Under the pieces are notes generated by a model that ran no database searches, was not told where the DNA came from, and saw only the letters and a list, made by a program, of their open reading frames with translations. A program made the position numbers and the translations under genes. This document shows positions 2 through 16,083 of a stretch of 20,000 nucleotides of DNA, piece after piece. The stretch lies in IMG/VR virus record IMGVR_UViG_3300025778_000013; one strand, 5' to 3'. The DNA comes from an uncultured virus (IMG/VR IMGVR_UViG_3300025778_000013). Its lineage: Duplodnaviria > Heunggongvirae > Uroviricota > Caudoviricetes. How positions within the stretch are numbered: the stretch's first letter is position 1; each line of letters starts with the position of its first letter.

Positions 2-2434
2 AAAGCATTGGAAGCATTTGATGCAAACTTAGCGGAGGACATGAACGAGGGCGAGTTAGCCCATATTGTTGGTGATTTACTTGGCGATTTTGATTCCGAT
101 ATTGCCTCGAGAAAAGACTGGATACAAACATATGTTGATGGTCTGCAGCTCCTTGGTTTAAAGATTGAGGAAAGAACAGAGCCTTGGGAAGGCGCTTGCG
201 GTGTGTATCACCCGATCATGAGCGAAGCATTGGTTAAATTCCAAGCAGAAACAATGATGTCTACATTCCCAGCAGCCGGTCCAGTTAAGACACAAATCAT
301 TGGTAAAGAAACACCAGATAAAAAAGCAGCGTCCGAACGTGTAGCTGCGGATATGAACTACCAGTTAACAGATGTAATGAAAGAGTATCGCCCTGAGCAT
401 GAGCGCATGTTGTGGGGCTTGGGTCTGGCTGGTAATGCGTTTAAAAAGATTTATATTGATCCAGCTCTAAACCGTCAAGTATCTATGTTTGTGCCTGCGG
501 AAGACATTGTTGTTCCATATGGTGCTTCAAGCTTAGAGACTGCGGATCGTGTAACCCACGTGATGCGTAAAACCGAGAACGACCTGCGTCGCTTACAAGT
601 AGCTGGGTTCTATCGTGATGTAGAGTTAGGTACGCCTGATAATATTTTAGATGAAGTTGAGAAGAAGATTGCTGAGAAGCTTGGCTTTAGAGCAACGACA
701 GACGACCGCTATAAGATTCTAGAGATGCATGTCAACCTTGACTTGCCAGGATATGAGCACAAAGACGAGAACGGTGAACCTACAGGCATAGCACTGCCAT
801 ATGTAGTAACAATCGAAAAAGGTAGTAACACCGTACTATCTATCCGCAGAAACTGGGAGCCAGATGATGAAACGTATCAAAAGAGACAGCACTTCGTCCA
901 CTACGGGTATGTACCTGGTTTTGGCTTCTATTGTTTTGGTCTCATCCATCTTATTGGCGCTTTTGCTAAAAGCGGTACTTCCATTCTTCGCCAGTTGGTT
1001 GATGCAGGGTCACTTGCAAATCTGCCAGGTGGCTTTAAGACCCGTGGCTTGCGAGTCAAAGGCGATGACACACCGATAGCTCCAGGTGAGTTCCGCGATG
1101 TCGATGTACCTAGTGGAGTTATGCGTGATAACATCATGCCGCTTCCATACAAAGAGCCAAGCCAAACATTAGCAGCTCTGCTAGACAAGATCATTATGGA
1201 AGGCCGTGCGTTTGCATCTGCGTCTGATATGCAGATCTCTGACATGGGCGCTAACACCCCAGTTGGTACAACACTAGCGATTCTAGAGCGTACGTTAAAA
1301 GTAATGTCTGCTGTTCAGGCTCGCATCCACTACAGCATGAAACAAGAGTTCCGTCTCTTAAAGAAAATCATTGCTGACTACACACCAGAGGAATATTCTT
1401 ATGAGCCGGACGAAGGCTCTCCACGTGCGAAAAAATCGGACTACGATAACGTTGACGTCATACCGGTGTCTGATCCCAATGCGTCGACAATGGCGCAAAA
1501 GATTGTCCAGTATCAAGCGGCTCTTCAACTGGCCCAGACAGCCCCGCAACTATATAACCTCCCGCTCTTGCACCGTCAGATGCTCGATGTTCTGGGGATT
1601 AAGGATGCGGCAAAACTTGTTCCGATGCAAGAAGACCAGAAGCCGGTGGACCCAATTACCGAGAACCAAAATCTTCTAACTAGTACACCAGTTAAAGCGT
1701 TCTCTTACCAAGATCATCAGGCGCATATCGCTGTACATATGTCATTCCTACACGATCCAAAGATTCAAGAACTGATGCAAAATAACCCACAAGCGCAAGT
1801 GATTCAGGCTGCTGCAATGGCCCACGTCAACGAGCACTTAGGATTTGCTTACCGTATTCAGATCGAACAACAATTGGGTATGACTTTACCTCCTCAAACC
1901 GACGAGTCTGGCGAAGATACCCATATGCCTCCAGAAGTAGAGGCACGCCTCGCTCCGTTGCTCGCCCAAGCTGCTACGCAATTACTCATGCAAAATCAAC
2001 AGCAAGCGGCGCAGCAACAAGCACAACAACAAGCCCAAGATCCGATTGTTCAAATGCAACAGCAAGAACTACAGATCAAGGCTGCCGAGCAGCAACGCAA
2101 AGCACAGAAAGATGCAACTGACGCACAACTCAAGCAGCAGCAATTGCAAATCGAAGTGCAGCGCATACAAACCCAAGCCCAAACAGACATGGCTAAAACT
2201 GCTGTTCAAGCACAGCAAGTCAAAGAAAAGATGGGTGTGGATTTAGTTAAGCAGCAAAAAGACCTGTTTGCCCAAGGACTAGATAATGCTCACAAACATG
2301 CTGCCGCAAAACATCAGCGTGAACAACAAGCAGAACAGTCTAACAAGCAGATGGAACACCAAGCTAAGCAAATGGAGCATCAAACTGCCCAAGTTGAAGC
2401 TAAACCAAAGGAAAAACCGACAAAAGGTAAATGA
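2..2434 (+). CDS. Phage portal protein (P22-like, long Gln-rich coiled-coil C-terminus); 5' end lies outside the window
   Basis: The frame is open from the window edge; the TTG at 8 is unlikely to be the real start. It encodes over 800 aa with portal-like segments (PWEGACGVYHP, GLAGNAFKKIY, FVHYGYVPGFGFYCFGLIH) and a Q/A-rich helical tail. It is the first gene of a head module. Confidence 0.85.
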   Translation, partial: KALEAFDANLAEDMNEGELAHIVGDLLGDFDSDIASRKDWIQTYVDGLQLLGLKIEERTEPWEGACGVYHPIMSEALVKFQAETMMSTFPAAGPVKTQIIGKETPDKKAASERVAADMNYQLTDVMKEYRPEHERMLWGLGLAGNAFKKIYIDPALNRQVSMFVPAEDIVVPYGASSLETADRVTHVMRKTENDLRRLQVAGFYRDVELGTPDNILDEVEKKIAEKLGFRATTDDRYKILEMHVNLDLPGYEHKDENGEPTGIALPYVVTIEKGSNTVLSIRRNWEPDDETYQKRQHFVHYGYVPGFGFYCFGLIHLIGAFAKSGTSILRQLVDAGSLANLPGGFKTRGLRVKGDDTPIAPGEFRDVDVPSGVMRDNIMPLPYKEPSQTLAALLDKIIMEGRAFASASDMQISDMGANTPVGTTLAILERTLKVMSAVQARIHYSMKQEFRLLKKIIADYTPEEYSYEPDEGSPRAKKSDYDNVDVIPVSDPNASTMAQKIVQYQAALQLAQTAPQLYNLPLLHRQMLDVLGIKDAAKLVPMQEDQKPVDPITENQNLLTSTPVKAFSYQDHQAHIAVHMSFLHDPKIQELMQNNPQAQVIQAAAMAHVNEHLGFAYRIQIEQQLGMTLPPQTDESGEDTHMPPEVEARLAPLLAQAATQLLMQNQQQAAQQQAQQQAQDPIVQMQQQELQIKAAEQQRKAQKDATDAQLKQQQLQIEVQRIQTQAQTDMAKTAVQAQQVKEKMGVDLVKQQKDLFAQGLDNAHKHAAAKHQREQQAEQSNKQMEHQAKQMEHQTAQVEAKPKEKPTKGK

Positions 2435-3085: not shown

Positions 3086-4057
3086 ATGGCTGAAATGCAA
3101 AAAGAAGAATACAAATTTCCTGATGAAGTAGAGGATAAAGGAGTATCTGAAGGCGAGTTCGAGATTGAAATCGAAGATGATACACCCCCAGAAGACCGTA
3201 ACAAAGAGCCAATGCCCAAAGAAATTGTGGAAAAGCTCGATAAGGATGAACTAGATAAGTACGAAGGTGAGACTAAAGAAAAGTTCAAACAACTCAAAAA
3301 GGTCTGGAACGACGAACGTCGGGAAAAAGAAAAGGCTGCTCGGGAACGTGAAGAAGCACTGGCGTTAGCCCGTAAAGCTATTGAAGAAAACAGACAGCTA
3401 AAAGAAAGACTTAGTTCTGGCGAACAGGTAATTGTGGATTCTCACAAAGCCGCAGCCCAGTCTGAGCTAGATTTAGCTAAAAAAGAGTACCGTGAAGCAT
3501 ATGATTCTGGCGATGCAGACAAGTTAATTGAAGCACAAGAGAAGCTAACAGCTGCCAAAATCAAAGCAGATCGCTTAGAAAGATATGAAGCACCTAAACA
3601 AAAAGCTTTACAAGAAGAAGAATATGTAGTACAAAGGGAGCAACCTGCACAAATTGAGCCAGACAAAAAGGCTGCAAAGTGGCAGAAAAAGAACAAATGG
3701 TTTGGTCGTGATGAAGAAATGACGAGCCTTGCCCTTGGTCTACATGAAAAACTCAAACGAAACGGTGTTCCCATCGGATCTGATGAGTATTACAGTAGCA
3801 TTGACAAAACAATGCGAAAACGTTTCCCAGAAGCTTTTGAAAAAGAGCAGAAGGAAAAAGAAGTAGAAGCTGCGGAAGACGATCGACAAAAGACTTCTAA
3901 ACCCAAAGCGAGCACGGTTGTAGCGCCCGCAACTCGTAGTACCTCGTCGAAAAAGGTTCGATTGACTACTACACAGGTCCAAATCGCAAAAAGATTAGGG
4001 CTTTCCCCTGAGCAATACGTCCGTGAACAATTGAAATTGGAGGCCCAAAATGGCTGA
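3086..4057 (+). CDS. Putative capsid scaffolding protein
   Basis: AGGAG RBS upstream. The protein is highly charged (E/K) and coiled-coil-like, with an acidic N-terminus and a C-terminal helix-turn-helix-like segment (LTTTQVQIAKRLGLSPEQY). It lies between portal and capsid genes. Confidence 0.65.
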   Translation: MAEMQKEEYKFPDEVEDKGVSEGEFEIEIEDDTPPEDRNKEPMPKEIVEKLDKDELDKYEGETKEKFKQLKKVWNDERREKEKAAREREEALALARKAIEENRQLKERLSSGEQVIVDSHKAAAQSELDLAKKEYREAYDSGDADKLIEAQEKLTAAKIKADRLERYEAPKQKALQEEEYVVQREQPAQIEPDKKAAKWQKKNKWFGRDEEMTSLALGLHEKLKRNGVPIGSDEYYSSIDKTMRKRFPEAFEKEQKEKEVEAAEDDRQKTSKPKASTVVAPATRSTSSKKVRLTTTQVQIAKRLGLSPEQYVREQLKLEAQNG

Positions 4058-5170: not shown

Positions 5171-6079
5171 ATGGCTATTTCTCGTGCACAGCTCCTAAAA
5201 GAGCTATTACCAGGCTTAAATGCTTTGTTCGGATTAGAGTATGCTCGCTACGGCGAAGAGCATAAAGAGATCTACGAAACAGAAACATCTGAGCGTTCTT
5301 TCGAAGAAGAAACAAAGTTGTCAGGTTTCAGCGCTGCCCCAGTTAAAAACGAAGGCTCCGCAATTGCGTACGATAATGCGCAAGAAGCATGGACAGCTCG
5401 CTACAACCATCAAACTATCGCTCTTGGCTTTAGCTTGACAGAAGAAGCGATCGAAGACAACTTGTATGATTCTTTATCTGCTCGTTACACTAAGGCACTC
5501 GCCCGTGCTATGGCTTACACCAAGCAAGTTAAAGCTGCTGCTGTATTGAACAACGGTTTCACCACTGGCTACAACGGTGGCGACAATACTACATTGTTCT
5601 CTACACAACATCCTTTGGTTTCTGGTGGTTATAACAGCAACACTCCATCTGTTGCCGCTGACTTGAATGAAACTTCTTTGGAAGCTGCCGTAATTCAAAT
5701 CGCTGCTTGGACAGACGAGCGTGGTCTCTTGATCGCTGCTAAGCCTAAGAAGTTAGTTGTTCCTCCTGCTCTCCAGTTCGTTGCAACTCGTTTGCTTGAA
5801 ACTGAATTGCGTGTTGGTACAAACGACAACGATATCAACGCATTGAAAAACAACGGTTCAATCCCAGAAGGTTACGCAATTAACCACTTCTTGACCGACA
5901 CCAATGCTTGGTTCTTGACAACTGATGTACCTAACGGCATGAAGCATTTCGTTCGCACCCCATTGCAAAACAGCATGGATGGTGACTTCGACACAGGTAA
6001 CGTACGTTACAAGTCTCGTGAGCGTTATTCTTTCGGCTGGTCTGATCCACTCGGTATGTACGGTTCTCCTGGAGCCTAA
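5171..6079 (+). CDS. Major capsid protein (HK97 fold, Mu gpT-like)
   Basis: 302 aa with an AAGGAG RBS and a following terminator. Recognisable segments include MAISRAQLLKELLPGLNALFG, SFEEETKLSGF, PKKLVVPPAL and DFDTGNVRYKSRERYSFGWSDP. Confidence 0.9.
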   Translation: MAISRAQLLKELLPGLNALFGLEYARYGEEHKEIYETETSERSFEEETKLSGFSAAPVKNEGSAIAYDNAQEAWTARYNHQTIALGFSLTEEAIEDNLYDSLSARYTKALARAMAYTKQVKAAAVLNNGFTTGYNGGDNTTLFSTQHPLVSGGYNSNTPSVAADLNETSLEAAVIQIAAWTDERGLLIAAKPKKLVVPPALQFVATRLLETELRVGTNDNDINALKNNGSIPEGYAINHFLTDTNAWFLTTDVPNGMKHFVRTPLQNSMDGDFDTGNVRYKSRERYSFGWSDPLGMYGSPGA

Positions 6080-6100
6080 TACCTCAAACCCCGTGTTTGG

Positions 6101-6131
6101 ACCCCGCTCACAAGGCGGGGTTTTTCTTTTC
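6101..6131 (+). terminator. Rho-independent terminator of the head operon
   Basis: ACCCCGC (6101-6107) pairs with GCGGGGT (6115-6121), followed by TTTTCTTTT, about 20 nt after the capsid stop. Confidence 0.85.
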
Positions 6132-6461
6132 TTCGTAGTGGTGGATTCTGTGGCAGTTAGCGCATAGCACTACACACTTTTTAATTTCTTCGTAAGCCTT
6201 TTTGTATTGGGCATTTGATACGTAGCGGTTTACGTTGCCTTCTTTCGTACTTGGATCTTCGTGGTGAAAATCTAATGCTGCATGGTGGTCAAACCCACAT
6301 TTTGTACACTTAAGTGTACATTTAAATGCATCCCATTCTTTTTTTAACTCTTTACGTCTAGCATTGATTGCTTCTCGTCTTTTGGCATAGTTGCCAAGAT
6401 AATGCTTACGGCTGTACTCCGCATGTTTGGCTTTTCTTACGTTCGCGTCTTTGTACGGCAT
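6108..6461 (-). CDS. HNH endonuclease (Zn-binding)
   Basis: CTKCG..HHAALDFHH...EIKKCVVLCANCHRIHH. The likely start is ATG at 6461 (MPYKD), with an AAGGT SD-like motif upstream, rather than 6539. Confidence 0.8.
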   Translation of the reverse strand: MPYKDANVRKAKHAEYSRKHYLGNYAKRREAINARRKELKKEWDAFKCTLKCTKCGFDHHAALDFHHEDPSTKEGNVNRYVSNAQYKKAYEEIKKCVVLCANCHRIHHYEEKKNPAL

Positions 6462-6894
6462 CCGGTTGTACCTTATATCTCCAATAGATCGCATTTTTAA
6501 ACGACCATTTGTTAGCGGGGGTATAAATTTTAAAACCACAACTAATAAGACTATTAGAGGAAGCTGGGTTATTTGTAGTGTCCGTAATTAACCAATTCCA
6601 ACCCAGCTCTTTAGCTTTCCGAATTCTTACTGATATTAAACGTTTTTGCAAACCATGTCCAGTATACCCATCTAATACACCTGCCCTACATAAATATCCT
6701 GTATCGCTCCACTTGATCGAGCGGACCAAACCCGCAAAACCTACAGGCTTTCCATCCTCTGCATAAGCAACCCACCAATGGCCCCGATCCGGTTGGTACG
6801 GCGTATCCGCCGGAAGTATTTTCTTTTGAAGAAAAAGTAGTGTGGTTTGAACTGACGGTACTCGAATATCCACTTTTTTTACTGTAAATTGCAT
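6406..6894 (-). CDS. GNAT-family N-acetyltransferase
   Basis: GKPVGFAGL strand, acetyl-CoA motif A-like GVLDGYTGHGLQKRL and motif B-like NPASSNSLISCGF. A GAGGAG RBS (6909-6904) lies 9 nt upstream of the ATG. Confidence 0.8.
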   Translation of the reverse strand: MQFTVKKVDIRVPSVQTTLLFLQKKILPADTPYQPDRGHWWVAYAEDGKPVGFAGLVRSIKWSDTGYLCRAGVLDGYTGHGLQKRLISVRIRKAKELGWNWLITDTTNNPASSNSLISCGFKIYTPANKWSFKNAIYWRYKVQPDAVQRRERKKSQTCGVQP

Positions 6895-6940
6895 TTCCCA
6901 TAGCTCCTCAATTATTTACCAGATTTATACTATTTTACCG

Positions 6941-6977
6941 AAAAAAGTGTTGCACAAATAAGAAAGTGTAGTATTAT
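6941..6977 (+). promoter_or_regulatory. Sigma70-like promoter
   Basis: A-tract at 6941-6946, -35 TTGCAC (6950-6955), 16-nt spacer and -10 TATTAT (6972-6977). The predicted start at about 6983-6985 is just before the structured RNA. Confidence 0.55.
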
Positions 6978-6985
6978 TGAAGAAA

Positions 6986-7058
6986 CCGGGAAAACCGGCC
7001 TTTTAGACTGTCCCGGCAGACGCATACACGACTAACTGGCTTATCTTTGTATGAAGGA
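6986..7058 (+). ncRNA. Candidate structured cis-regulatory RNA with two pseudoknots (reminiscent of the Polynucleobacter-1 motif)
   Basis: Complementary pairs: CCGGGA 6986-6991/TCCCGG 7011-7016; GCC 6998-7000/GGC 7038-7040 plus TTAG 7003-7006/CTAA 7032-7035; CTG 7008-7010/CAG 7017-7019; CATACA 7023-7028/TGTATG 7048-7053. The family resemblance is from memory and unverified. Confidence 0.6.
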
Positions 7059-7067
7059 CAATTCGTT

Positions 7068-7580
7068 ATGGCACTATCTACCACCCAGTCAATTTGGCGT
7101 TCTGGCGGCGGCGATCAAACTCGCACAGCATTATGTGGCACAGCAGGCATGTATTTGCCTTTTTATGTTGCAAACAGCTCCGCTACTGCAAATATCGTAA
7201 ATAGCTCAGCAAATTCACAAGCTTTGATTCTCCCAGCAGGTGCAGTTATTACTAGCATCACTGTTACTAATACAACTACTGGCGGTAACTCAGCAATTAA
7301 CATTGGCTACACACCTTTGGTCCAAGTTGGTCCAGGCCAAGCAACTACTTTAGGTACAAACGTTCCTGCAGCATTTGTTAACGGCGGTAACGTAGCTACT
7401 CGTACATTGTTTAATATTTCTTCTGCTACTGCTGGTTCTTCCATGAGCAACGTTGCTAATGCAACTAACTTAATTGTATTGACCGCTACTGCTGGCGCTC
7501 CTGGTGCTACTGGTGTTGCAATCTCTGGAAACATCCACTACTACGTAGCTGATCCAATTAACGGCGTACAAAACGTTTAA
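7068..7580 (+). CDS. Hypothetical virion structural protein
   Basis: The ATG at 7068 follows the AAGGA RBS (7054-7058), so it is preferred over the TTG at 7047. The 170-aa product is T/A/G/N-rich with a beta-type composition. Confidence 0.7.
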   Translation: MALSTTQSIWRSGGGDQTRTALCGTAGMYLPFYVANSSATANIVNSSANSQALILPAGAVITSITVTNTTTGGNSAINIGYTPLVQVGPGQATTLGTNVPAAFVNGGNVATRTLFNISSATAGSSMSNVANATNLIVLTATAGAPGATGVAISGNIHYYVADPINGVQNV

Positions 7581-7589
7581 TTAATCTTA

Positions 7590-7603
7590 GGGGCTTCGGC
7601 CCC
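7590..7603 (+). promoter_or_regulatory. GC hairpin with C(UUCG)G tetraloop; RNA-stabilising or processing hairpin, or weak terminator
   Basis: GGGGC-TTCG-GCCCC between genes, with no proper U-tract after it. Confidence 0.6.
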
Positions 7604-12773: not shown

Positions 12774-13355
12774 ATGAAGCTTTGTGTTAAATGCAAAGCT
12801 CAAAAACCTTTAAGCGAGTTTTATAAACGCACTGATTCGCCTGATGGTTATCGGAACGACTGCAAAGATTGTCGTAAATCTGCTTCGCTTAAAAATCATT
12901 ACGATAATCAAGAGCAACGTAAAGCAAGATTTAGAGCGGCACATGCAAAACGTGTTGCGGAAAACCCAAACTTTTATGCCGAGCGTTATGCTAAAAATAG
13001 AGAACAAGATTTGCAAAACTCTAGAAATACATATGTTCGATATGCTGATAAGTGGAAAGCTAAGCAGCGCCTGTGGAGCAAAACCAATCGTGGCATTGCT
13101 AACGCCCTTGGTCGCAAGTACAAGCTTAAAAAAGCTAAGGCTACACCACTATGGTTAACGCCAGAACAGCTTTATAATATGCAATGTACTTACAAAGTTG
13201 CGGCGCAATTGAGTGAGACTAGCAGTGAAAAATGGCATGTTGACCACATAGTGCCTATTCGTGGCAAAGATGTATGCGGGCTTCATGTACCTTGGAACTT
13301 ACAACTATTACCGGCAAAAATGAATATGACTAAAGGAAACAGAGTATGGCGTTAG
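12774..13355 (+). CDS. Free-standing HNH endonuclease with N-terminal Zn-binding region
   Basis: CVKC...CKDC at the N-terminus and WHVDHIVPIRGKDVCGLHVPWNLQLLPAKMNMTKGN at the C-terminus. Confidence 0.85.
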   Translation: MKLCVKCKAQKPLSEFYKRTDSPDGYRNDCKDCRKSASLKNHYDNQEQRKARFRAAHAKRVAENPNFYAERYAKNREQDLQNSRNTYVRYADKWKAKQRLWSKTNRGIANALGRKYKLKKAKATPLWLTPEQLYNMQCTYKVAAQLSETSSEKWHVDHIVPIRGKDVCGLHVPWNLQLLPAKMNMTKGNRVWR

Positions 13356-15594: not shown

Positions 15595-16083
15595 ATGGTT
15601 ACTCAAGAACTTCTCAAAAGCCTATTTGACTATCAAGATGGCCATTTAATTTGGAAAGTGCAAAAAGCAAAAAGAACCAAAATTGGATCTGCTGCTGGAT
15701 GGCAAAACATTGATAAACGTGGTCAGCGGTATTTGAACGTTGAAATTAACGGTAAAGCATATAAAATTCATAGATTGGTGTTTCTATATCACAACGGTTA
15801 TCTTGCCAAAGATATAGACCATATTGATGGCAATAGACTAAACAATCGCATAGAAAACTTGCGGGAAGTTACCGAAAGCCAAAATGCGTTTAACAGTAAG
15901 ATTAGAAATACCAATACCTCTGGATACAAAAATGTGTTCAAAGAAAAAAACAAGTGGAGAGTTCAGCTAAGTATTCAGGGCAAGAGTTTGAGTTTTGGAT
16001 CTTTTGATGACTTGGAGCTTGCTGGATTAGTGGCTGAAGAAGCTAGAGATAAATTTCATGGGGCTTATGCCCGTCATTTTTAA
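15595..16083 (+). CDS. Free-standing HNH endonuclease with C-terminal AP2-like DNA-binding domain
   Basis: HRLVF...IDHIDGNRLNNRIENLREVTESQN (HNH) followed by NTSGYKNV...KWRVQL...FGSFDD (AP2-like); AAGGAG RBS. Confidence 0.88.
   Translation: MVTQELLKSLFDYQDGHLIWKVQKAKRTKIGSAAGWQNIDKRGQRYLNVEINGKAYKIHRLVFLYHNGYLAKDIDHIDGNRLNNRIENLREVTESQNAFNSKIRNTNTSGYKNVFKEKNKWRVQLSIQGKSLSFGSFDDLELAGLVAEEARDKFHGAYARHF

Follow-up and report, generated by a model that had tools for sequence, protein, structure and literature searches.

Single pseudoknotted leaders that are tied to one gene and lie at its ribosome site are described for gene 32 of phage T4 and for rpsO of Escherichia coli. The T4 protein gp32 represses its own translation through a leader pseudoknot (PMC3014915), and S15 does so through a pseudoknot in the rpsO leader, where hairpin and pseudoknot are in equilibrium (PMC3985624). 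In both cases the knot is of the simple H type, the protein binds nucleic acids and repression is proven. T4 also has an inhibitory leader hairpin over the Shine–Dalgarno (SD) sequence of soc, a capsid accessory gene, and at its gene e late promoters placed inside such a structure remove that structure (PMC3014915). Autoregulation by the P22 scaffolding protein appears as the title of a reference in PMC2115188.

The RNA closest to the one described here is an orphan, Mu-gpT-DE (RF03012), which Rfam files as "Gene; sRNA" with a gathering score of 49 bits. A 2017 survey by Weinberg is its reported source. As far as it was available, the main text of PMC5737381 does not name Mu-gpT-DE, and the accessible portion of PMC7657543 only lists it as present in Rfam and ZWD.

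We have analysed a 20,000-nucleotide stretch of DNA (the window) from an uncultured member of the Caudoviricetes, in which a structured RNA of about 70 nt precedes the gene for a capsid cement (decoration) protein. On the comparisons given below this RNA is an uncatalogued, expanded relative of Mu-gpT-DE, and its probable role is to allow a protein, which may be the cement protein itself, to shut down cement production. It resembles the gene 32 and rpsO leaders in its position and in serving one gene, and the competition between its hairpin P0 and its first pseudoknot recalls the rpsO equilibrium. It differs from them in being a three-way junction with two knots before the gene for a virion surface protein, with a putative ligand. 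As in soc, the SD under RNA structure is that of a capsid accessory gene. Here the promoter precedes the leader as a whole, immediately upstream of it, so release would need a mechanism other than that of T4 gene e.

The late region

The window is the late region of a tailed phage (Table 1). Some 900 nt with two antisense genes separate the capsid stop codon from the leader RNA; in many relatives the slot of these genes is empty or holds other inserts. Two further HNH or endonuclease genes are found among the tail genes (12774-13355 and 15595-16083). Directly after the cement stop codon there is a GC-rich hairpin, GGGGC-TTCG-GCCCC (7590-7603), without a U run, which could bound or stabilise a cement-only mRNA.

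Matches to the capsid protein in GTDB fall on MAG contigs of many unrelated taxa, and the isolated phages with some form of the leader have Pelagibacter, Roseobacter or a gammaproteobacterium as host. Phages of the HTVC023P type are described as being among the most abundant pelagiphages (PMC9599517).

Table 1. Features of the late region and of the cement leader in window coordinates.
Feature	Position	Strand	Remarks
Portal gene	8-2434		
GroES gene			Between portal and major capsid protein in the listed gene order
Major capsid protein gene, HTVC023P type (gpT-like)	5171..6079	+	phrog_371; 63% identity to the capsid protein of Pelagibacter phage HTVC023P
Terminator-like hairpin	6099..6123	+	Closes the capsid operon
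HNH endonuclease and overlapping acetyltransferase genes	6108-6894	minus	Antisense, between capsid terminator and leader promoter
-35-like hexamer TTGCAC	6950..6955	+	Weak match to TTGACA
-10 hexamer TATTAT	6972..6977	+	Predicted transcription start ~6983-6985
PK1 5′ strand CCGGGA	6986..6991	+	Pairs with P3 loop TCCCGG, 7011-7016
P0, CCGG-GAAAA-CCGG	6986..6998	+	Exclusive with PK1; lineage-restricted
P2 5′ strand GCCTTTTAG	6998..7006	+	Closing helix of the junction; pairs with 7032-7040
RAY triplet 1 (GAC)	7006..7008	+	G7006-C7032 paired, A7007 unpaired, C7008-G7019 paired
P3 hairpin, 3 bp CTG/CAG (7008-7010/7017-7019)	7008..7019	+	Loop 7011-7016 is the PK1 3′ strand
RAY triplet 2 (GAC)	7019..7021	+	A7020 unpaired; lone pair C7021-G7030
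PK2 5′ strand CATACA	7023..7028	+	In 8-nt loop closed by lone pair C7021-G7030
RAY triplet 3 (GAC)	7030..7032	+	A7031 unpaired
P2 3′ strand CTAACTGGC	7032..7040	+	Pairs with 6998-7006; 7/9 paired in the window
PK2 3′ strand TGTATG	7048..7053	+	Pairs with 7023-7028; ends against the SD
Shine–Dalgarno AAGGA	7054..7058	+	Read in the sequence
Gene X, capsid cement (decoration) protein, 170 aa	7068..7580	+	Predicted jelly roll and homotrimer
Neck and tail genes			After gene X

Structure of the leader

A first-pass annotation of the window had proposed an RNA with an outer stem, an enclosed hairpin, two pseudoknots and an alternative 5′ hairpin, and every one of these pairings is present in the sequence. 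Its account of helices and knots stands; it missed the lone pair C7021-G7030, the RAY triplets, the identity of the downstream gene as that of a cement protein and the relation to Mu-gpT-DE. Taken together, the homologous leaders show the predicted fold to be a pseudo-three-fold three-way junction with one unpaired A in each strand and with two of its arms clamped by pseudoknots. The three RAY triplets pair in a ring, 7008 with 7019, 7021 with 7030 and 7032 with 7006. The three-fold look is a secondary-structure argument, and the three arms are unequal in length.

The only invariant columns in a structure-blind alignment of 104 leaders are A7007, A7020 and A7031. Among 225 distinct leaders A7007 is A in 215 and G in 10, while A7020 and A7031 are each kept in 224; no base of the leader outside these three is near-invariant. 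Pair 7008-7019 is CG in 218 leaders and UA in seven, and like 7009-7018 it is Watson–Crick in all 225. The lone pair 7021-7030 is CG in 199, UA in 22, UG in two and unpaired in two, and pair 7006-7032 is GC in 111, AU in 96, UA in three, GU in two and unpaired in 13. Because near-invariance is limited to the junction A's and the helices all covary, we consider that the shape may be read by a protein.

Among the best 80 of 466 loci with relatives of gene X, 78 carry the same leader and two are incomplete, and the same figures (78 of the best 80, two incomplete) were obtained with the HTVC023P protein as query. The best 80 loci for the DSL-LC04 protein divide into 39 with the long leader, 39 with shorter forms and two incomplete. 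IMG/VR contains at least 120 exact matches to a 20-base core of the leader, and a BLASTN search of deposited phages with the leader found four chance matches only. The element is single-copy, with one match in the window, one each in five of five near-complete virus records and one each in the three of five named phages that match at all. Two loci without a cement-like gene behind the capsid gene (L523 and L532) are also without the leader.

The helices are conserved and covary in these homologues, and to judge by this covariation the structure is real. In the structure-blind MAFFT alignment of 104 leaders 93.9% of the P2 cells are paired, and all nine pairs vary on both sides. The columns of PK1 and PK2 were out of register in the first MAFFT alignment (58 and 27% paired, respectively), so for both knots matching words were counted, with cross-swap controls. 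At least five Watson–Crick base pairs are formed by PK1 in 217 of the 225 distinct leaders (control 2.8%; 21 different words) and by PK2 in 211 (control 7.2%; 46 words), in a set that is partly circular because 106 of its rows were picked by a pseudoknot criterion. Held-out rows taken without that criterion, some of them mis-parsed, have PK1 in 92/96 and PK2 in 81/96 cases, and capsid-anchored loci found by a model without pseudoknot pairs have them in 24/26 and 23/26. The double pseudoknot is thus supported by the word counts.

Against a custom tree-based null of 40 simulations the helices P2 and P3 lie above all null values, as do four pairs of PK1 and the lone pair 7021-7030; the evidence for PK2 is the word matching with its cross-swap control. 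Some neighbouring columns of the PK2 loop also score against this null, from register shifts. On a smaller set of leaders the lone pair had an E of about 0.4, not yet significant. Pair 7008-7019 varies so rarely that it ranks 43rd of 2926 against the tree null and falls short of significance. Folding of the window sequence alone did not rise above shuffles (nested MFE z of 0.44, 0.06 and 0.13).

The alternative 5′ hairpin P0 had been taken as the sign of a switch between hairpin and pseudoknot. P0 occurs in 112 of 217 leaders (control 17%) and, where the 5′ strand is non-palindromic, in 44 of 88 leaders versus 29% in the control, and it is found in none of the 27 leaders of the HTVC023P type. 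Its pair 6987-6997 has an E of about 0.1 against the tree null, and P0 did no better than a slid control in the first MAFFT alignment. Crude nested energies for P0 and PK1 are close, at -6.9 and -8.9 kcal/mol, with pseudoknot terms outside the model. On its occurrence P0 is real but facultative. The proposed switch holds for about half of the family, and in view of its absence from the HTVC023P-type leaders it cannot be the core mechanism.

Relation to Mu-gpT-DE and other known RNAs

The Mu-gpT-DE model gave no match at E ≤ 10 in 6900-7120 and none at the gathering score in 20 homologous loci; two positive controls scored 72.3 bits (L206) and 74.5 bits (L521). Mu-gpT-DE itself occupies the same slot before the cement gene in Roseobacter phage CRP-902 (72.3 bits) and in L521. 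Both RNAs lie behind a gpT-type capsid gene and at their ends carry the SD and start codon of the structural gene that follows, and both have a closing helix, an unpaired A, a hairpin, a 12-13-nt AC...GA strand and three GACs. In Mu-gpT-DE the closing helix CCUG/CAGG contains the SD, whereas the 9-bp P2 of the window does not. The window leader is without the conserved ACUAGCCAC loop strand, its own loop being GCAUACAC, and adds two pseudoknots and a 5′ extension. The Rfam consensus line of Mu-gpT-DE draws neither the third pair nor the pseudoknots; the third GAC, which lay outside our search pattern, is nevertheless present in 104 of 105 distinct short-form matches.

Intermediates connect the two forms. 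PK1 is present and PK2 absent in L377, where a separate hairpin covers the SD; L512 has PK2 and not PK1. The other two are short forms: L522, whose first junction pair is changed to U-A, and L407, which our model matches weakly (E of 0.04). The junction is kept in leaders that have lost PK1 (L512), PK2 (L377) or the two together (L522 and L407). The shared slot, the shared three-GAC core and these intermediates lead us to regard the window RNA as an expanded variant of the Mu-gpT-DE family. Equally, our comparative data make this family a 5′ leader of the cement gene and not a downstream element of gpT.

With respect to the rest of Rfam, a covariance-model scan found no match at E ≤ 10 for the window leader and none at gathering in 20 homologues. 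The initial impression of a likeness to Polynucleobacter-1 (RF01718), an orphan motif of freshwater or estuary origin that PMC2864571 lists as possibly cis-regulatory, was not borne out: there was no Rfam match at E ≤ 10 over 6900-7120, and the nine seed rows compared, from supplement 5 of that paper, have a different and longer sequence. The long form is described nowhere in Rfam 15 or in the literature searched, although the supplements of PMC5737381 and PMC10690425 could list the motif. The terms riboswitch, noncoding and cement were not found in PMC9599517, and the part of PMC10085705 that was available does not cover the long form.

The leader was also compared with another class of doubly knotted RNA. 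HDV-like ribozymes nest two pseudoknots (P1-P1.1-P2-P3-P4) and keep a catalytic C in J4/2 invariant. The 5′ strand of the leader pairs inside the P3 loop, there is no P4 or J4/2 and the strand order is different, so the leader was not assigned to this class.

Promoter and ribosome-binding site

The leader had been placed directly behind a promoter, and the promoter words are indeed conserved at a fixed distance from PK1. The modal position of the -35-like word TTG[AC][AC], shared by 58 of 217 leaders, is 36 nt ahead of PK1. In 132 of 217 a TAnnnT is found 6-10 nt ahead of PK1, versus 9-30 in control bins, with a -10 peak at 8 nt. Both words of the window are at the modal spacings of the family; a consensus promoter scan of the window did not return this promoter. 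Since the words keep these spacings in the family and in the window, the RNA is predicted to start 1-3 nt before PK1. Sequencing runs contained at most 8% of the leader words, as contigs only, and were mostly probably DNA.

At the other end PK2 was expected to abut the SD. The gap between PK2 and the SD is 0-1 nt in 124 of 225 leaders; in 56 the two overlap and in 41 they are 2 nt or more apart, so that PK2 adjoins or overlaps the SD in 180. Between the capsid stop codon and the leader there can be as few as 30 or as many as 1577 nt, but the RNA adjoins the cement start in every case. The leader runs into the start codon of the cement gene, with no terminator after the RNA. The SD is occluded in three ways within the family, by PK2 in the long form, by the CCUG/CAGG closing helix in Mu-gpT-DE and by a separate hairpin in L377.

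Some short forms (L339, L525 and L235) follow a terminator without a -10 box and are therefore internal to a read-through transcript.

Gene X as a capsid cement protein

The gene in this position is annotated in relatives as a cement protein (DSL-LC04), a minor capsid protein (Pag-Yong1) or hypothetical. Gene X itself has no PHROG family, no sequence match in the PDB and no named Atlas cluster above 0.9. Its AlphaFold model is a jelly roll with a pLDDT of 74. The best three fold matches among 48161 chains are the cements of Pam1 (7eel_H), KHP40 (7dou) and GP4 (8h89), with 10-16% identity and Z of 7.9, 7.5 and 7.4, values under 8 that, according to the tool, may mean only a common arrangement. 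Foldseek searches with the model gave E of 0.004-0.006, with none at or below 0.001. As in gene X, the genes of these three cements lie behind the capsid gene.

Three copies of the gene X product were modelled with a score of 0.84 against 0.41 for the best control; this mark was reached by 20 of 30 solved pairs and one of 23 single chains. The runs had at least 50% of contacts in common and pLDDT of at least 78, and the N-terminal arm lies in the predicted interface, as in the Pam1, KHP40 and GP4 cements. We therefore predict a jelly-roll homotrimer, with the caveat that the trimer result may reflect likeness to solved cement trimers. The cements of GP4, KHP30 and Pam1 are trimers at three-fold axes (PMC9698820), and the title of the PDB entry for the KHP40 cement calls it trimeric.

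Ten proteins encoded behind such leaders have only their first 15-20 residues in common, with bodies of 64-237 aa. A modular look, with a conserved N-terminal motif of the TTFSGPV or HLGPW type and a variable body, was noted for the cement ORFs of L498, L504, L509, L517, L518, L519, L525, L526, L530 and L534. In the window the N-terminus of gene X has diverged and the junction of the leader is unchanged. No RNA-binding surface is evident in gene X, and our literature search found no report that the trimeric jelly-roll cements of Pam1, KHP40 and GP4 bind RNA.

A possible autogenous operator and its alternatives

The first-pass annotation offered several readings, of which the general one, a translational switch or protein-binding leader, is supported. 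What is constant in the family is the three-A junction and a helix over the SD, and the rest is exchangeable, which points to a translational OFF state stabilised by a protein. A pseudo-three-fold RNA before the gene for a predicted trimer further suggests autogenous control. By analogy with gp32 and S15, our tentative proposal is that the leader is an autogenous translational operator whose ligand is the cement trimer itself. Free trimer, left over once the matured capsids are saturated, would bind the pseudo-three-fold junction and stabilise the weak third arm, formed by the lone pair and PK2, so blocking loading of the 30S subunit. As new capsids titrated the trimer away, translation of the cement would resume. 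The outcome would be a cement output matched to the number of capsids despite the terminator and promoter between the two genes; P0 in this phage would be an unbound or early-folding form. It is a more speculative idea, about which we have some doubt, that the homotrimer reads the junction because the RNA mimics the three-fold site on the matured capsid, in which case a symmetry-matched operator would count finished capsids.

The same switch might be worked by another protein, such as unassembled major capsid protein, a scaffold, another conserved phage protein or a host RNA-binding protein, with cement synthesis held off (or turned on) by the state of head assembly. Divergence of the gene X N-terminus beside an unchanged junction means that a more conserved ligand, for example the major capsid protein, fits the conservation better: the capsid protein is 60-90% conserved across these phages, like the junction, and the cement body far less. 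Long and short leaders also alternate before closely similar cement genes (39 long and 39 other among the best 80). This version would, however, leave the three-fold pseudo-symmetry without a reason, the element is single-copy, unlike a regulon site, and the isolated carriers infect different hosts, Pelagibacter, Roseobacter and a gammaproteobacterium. On balance we think another ligand unlikely. That no ligand is involved, the structure serving constitutively to protect the 5′ end of an abundant late mRNA or to set the rate of translation through display or partial masking of the SD, seems improbable. The long form begins at the predicted transcription start with its first bases buried in PK1 or P0, and the stable hairpin at 7590-7603 follows the gene, both in favour of this reading; but three near-invariant unpaired A's would go unexplained, and the read-through short forms (L339, L525 and L235) are not at a 5′ end.

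Two readings that assign the RNA a chemistry of its own must also be weighed. In a metabolite- or ion-sensing riboswitch the A's would line a pocket, and binding would stabilise PK2 over the ribosome site. The RNA is compact and doubly pseudoknotted, runs from promoter to SD, has an alternative fold in half of the family and presents a helix that adjoins or covers the SD in 180 of 225 leaders. Against this, metabolite riboswitches combine numerous strongly conserved bases with target genes of a single metabolic function; here only three bases are near-invariant, all cases seen precede a virion structural (cement) gene with one copy per genome, and no Rfam riboswitch matches, which makes such a sensor distinctly improbable. 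We give very little credence to a self-cleaving ribozyme or to an RNA released for head assembly or packaging. The size, multistem junction and two pseudoknots fit the criteria for ribozymes quoted in PMC10085705, which also notes an enrichment of ribozymes near Mu-like phage genes; yet no Rfam ribozyme family matches, no G or C is invariant, there is neither a terminator nor a gap between RNA and SD, and the short form keeps the junction while burying the SD. The suggestion of a virion-assembly RNA made at first reading is not supported either: the RNA has no terminator after it and in every case continues into the start codon of the cement gene.

With the cement trimer as ligand, a capsid decoration protein would be exerting feedback on translation by way of an unusual junction with three A's; our literature search found no paper on feedback of this kind. 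Were the symmetry-matched operator true, it would be in use across very abundant aquatic phages and would supply a function for Mu-gpT-DE. Even with another ligand, an RNA of about 70 nt that combines a triple-A junction with two pseudoknots is a good structural target. For what was an orphan Rfam motif, the comparison makes out a family whose core and target gene are defined and whose mechanism is open to test. The long form is present in the cultured phages HTVC023P, HTVC027P and DSL-LC04 and the short form in CRP-902, so a test of the mechanism is feasible.

Atypical loci

Several loci depart from the common arrangement. Minimal cement leaders in L345, L355, L356, L383 and L393 have only two GACs around a small hairpin or a 6-nt spacer and are unexplained by the three-way model. 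In L551 (~1090-1200) capsid coding sequence passes straight into a cement-like match without a leader, possibly through a chimeric contig or a deletion; with capsid coding sequence where the leader was expected, this locus was dropped from one 96-row set. The short leader and cement gene of L522 (~3770-3840) come from a Pseudomonas MAG contig of 465 kb, which may point to a prophage and to the host. Directly behind the capsid gene of L529 there is, from ~3500, an ORF of 377 aa, the N-terminus of which resembles that of an IS200/IS605 TnpB-type protein.
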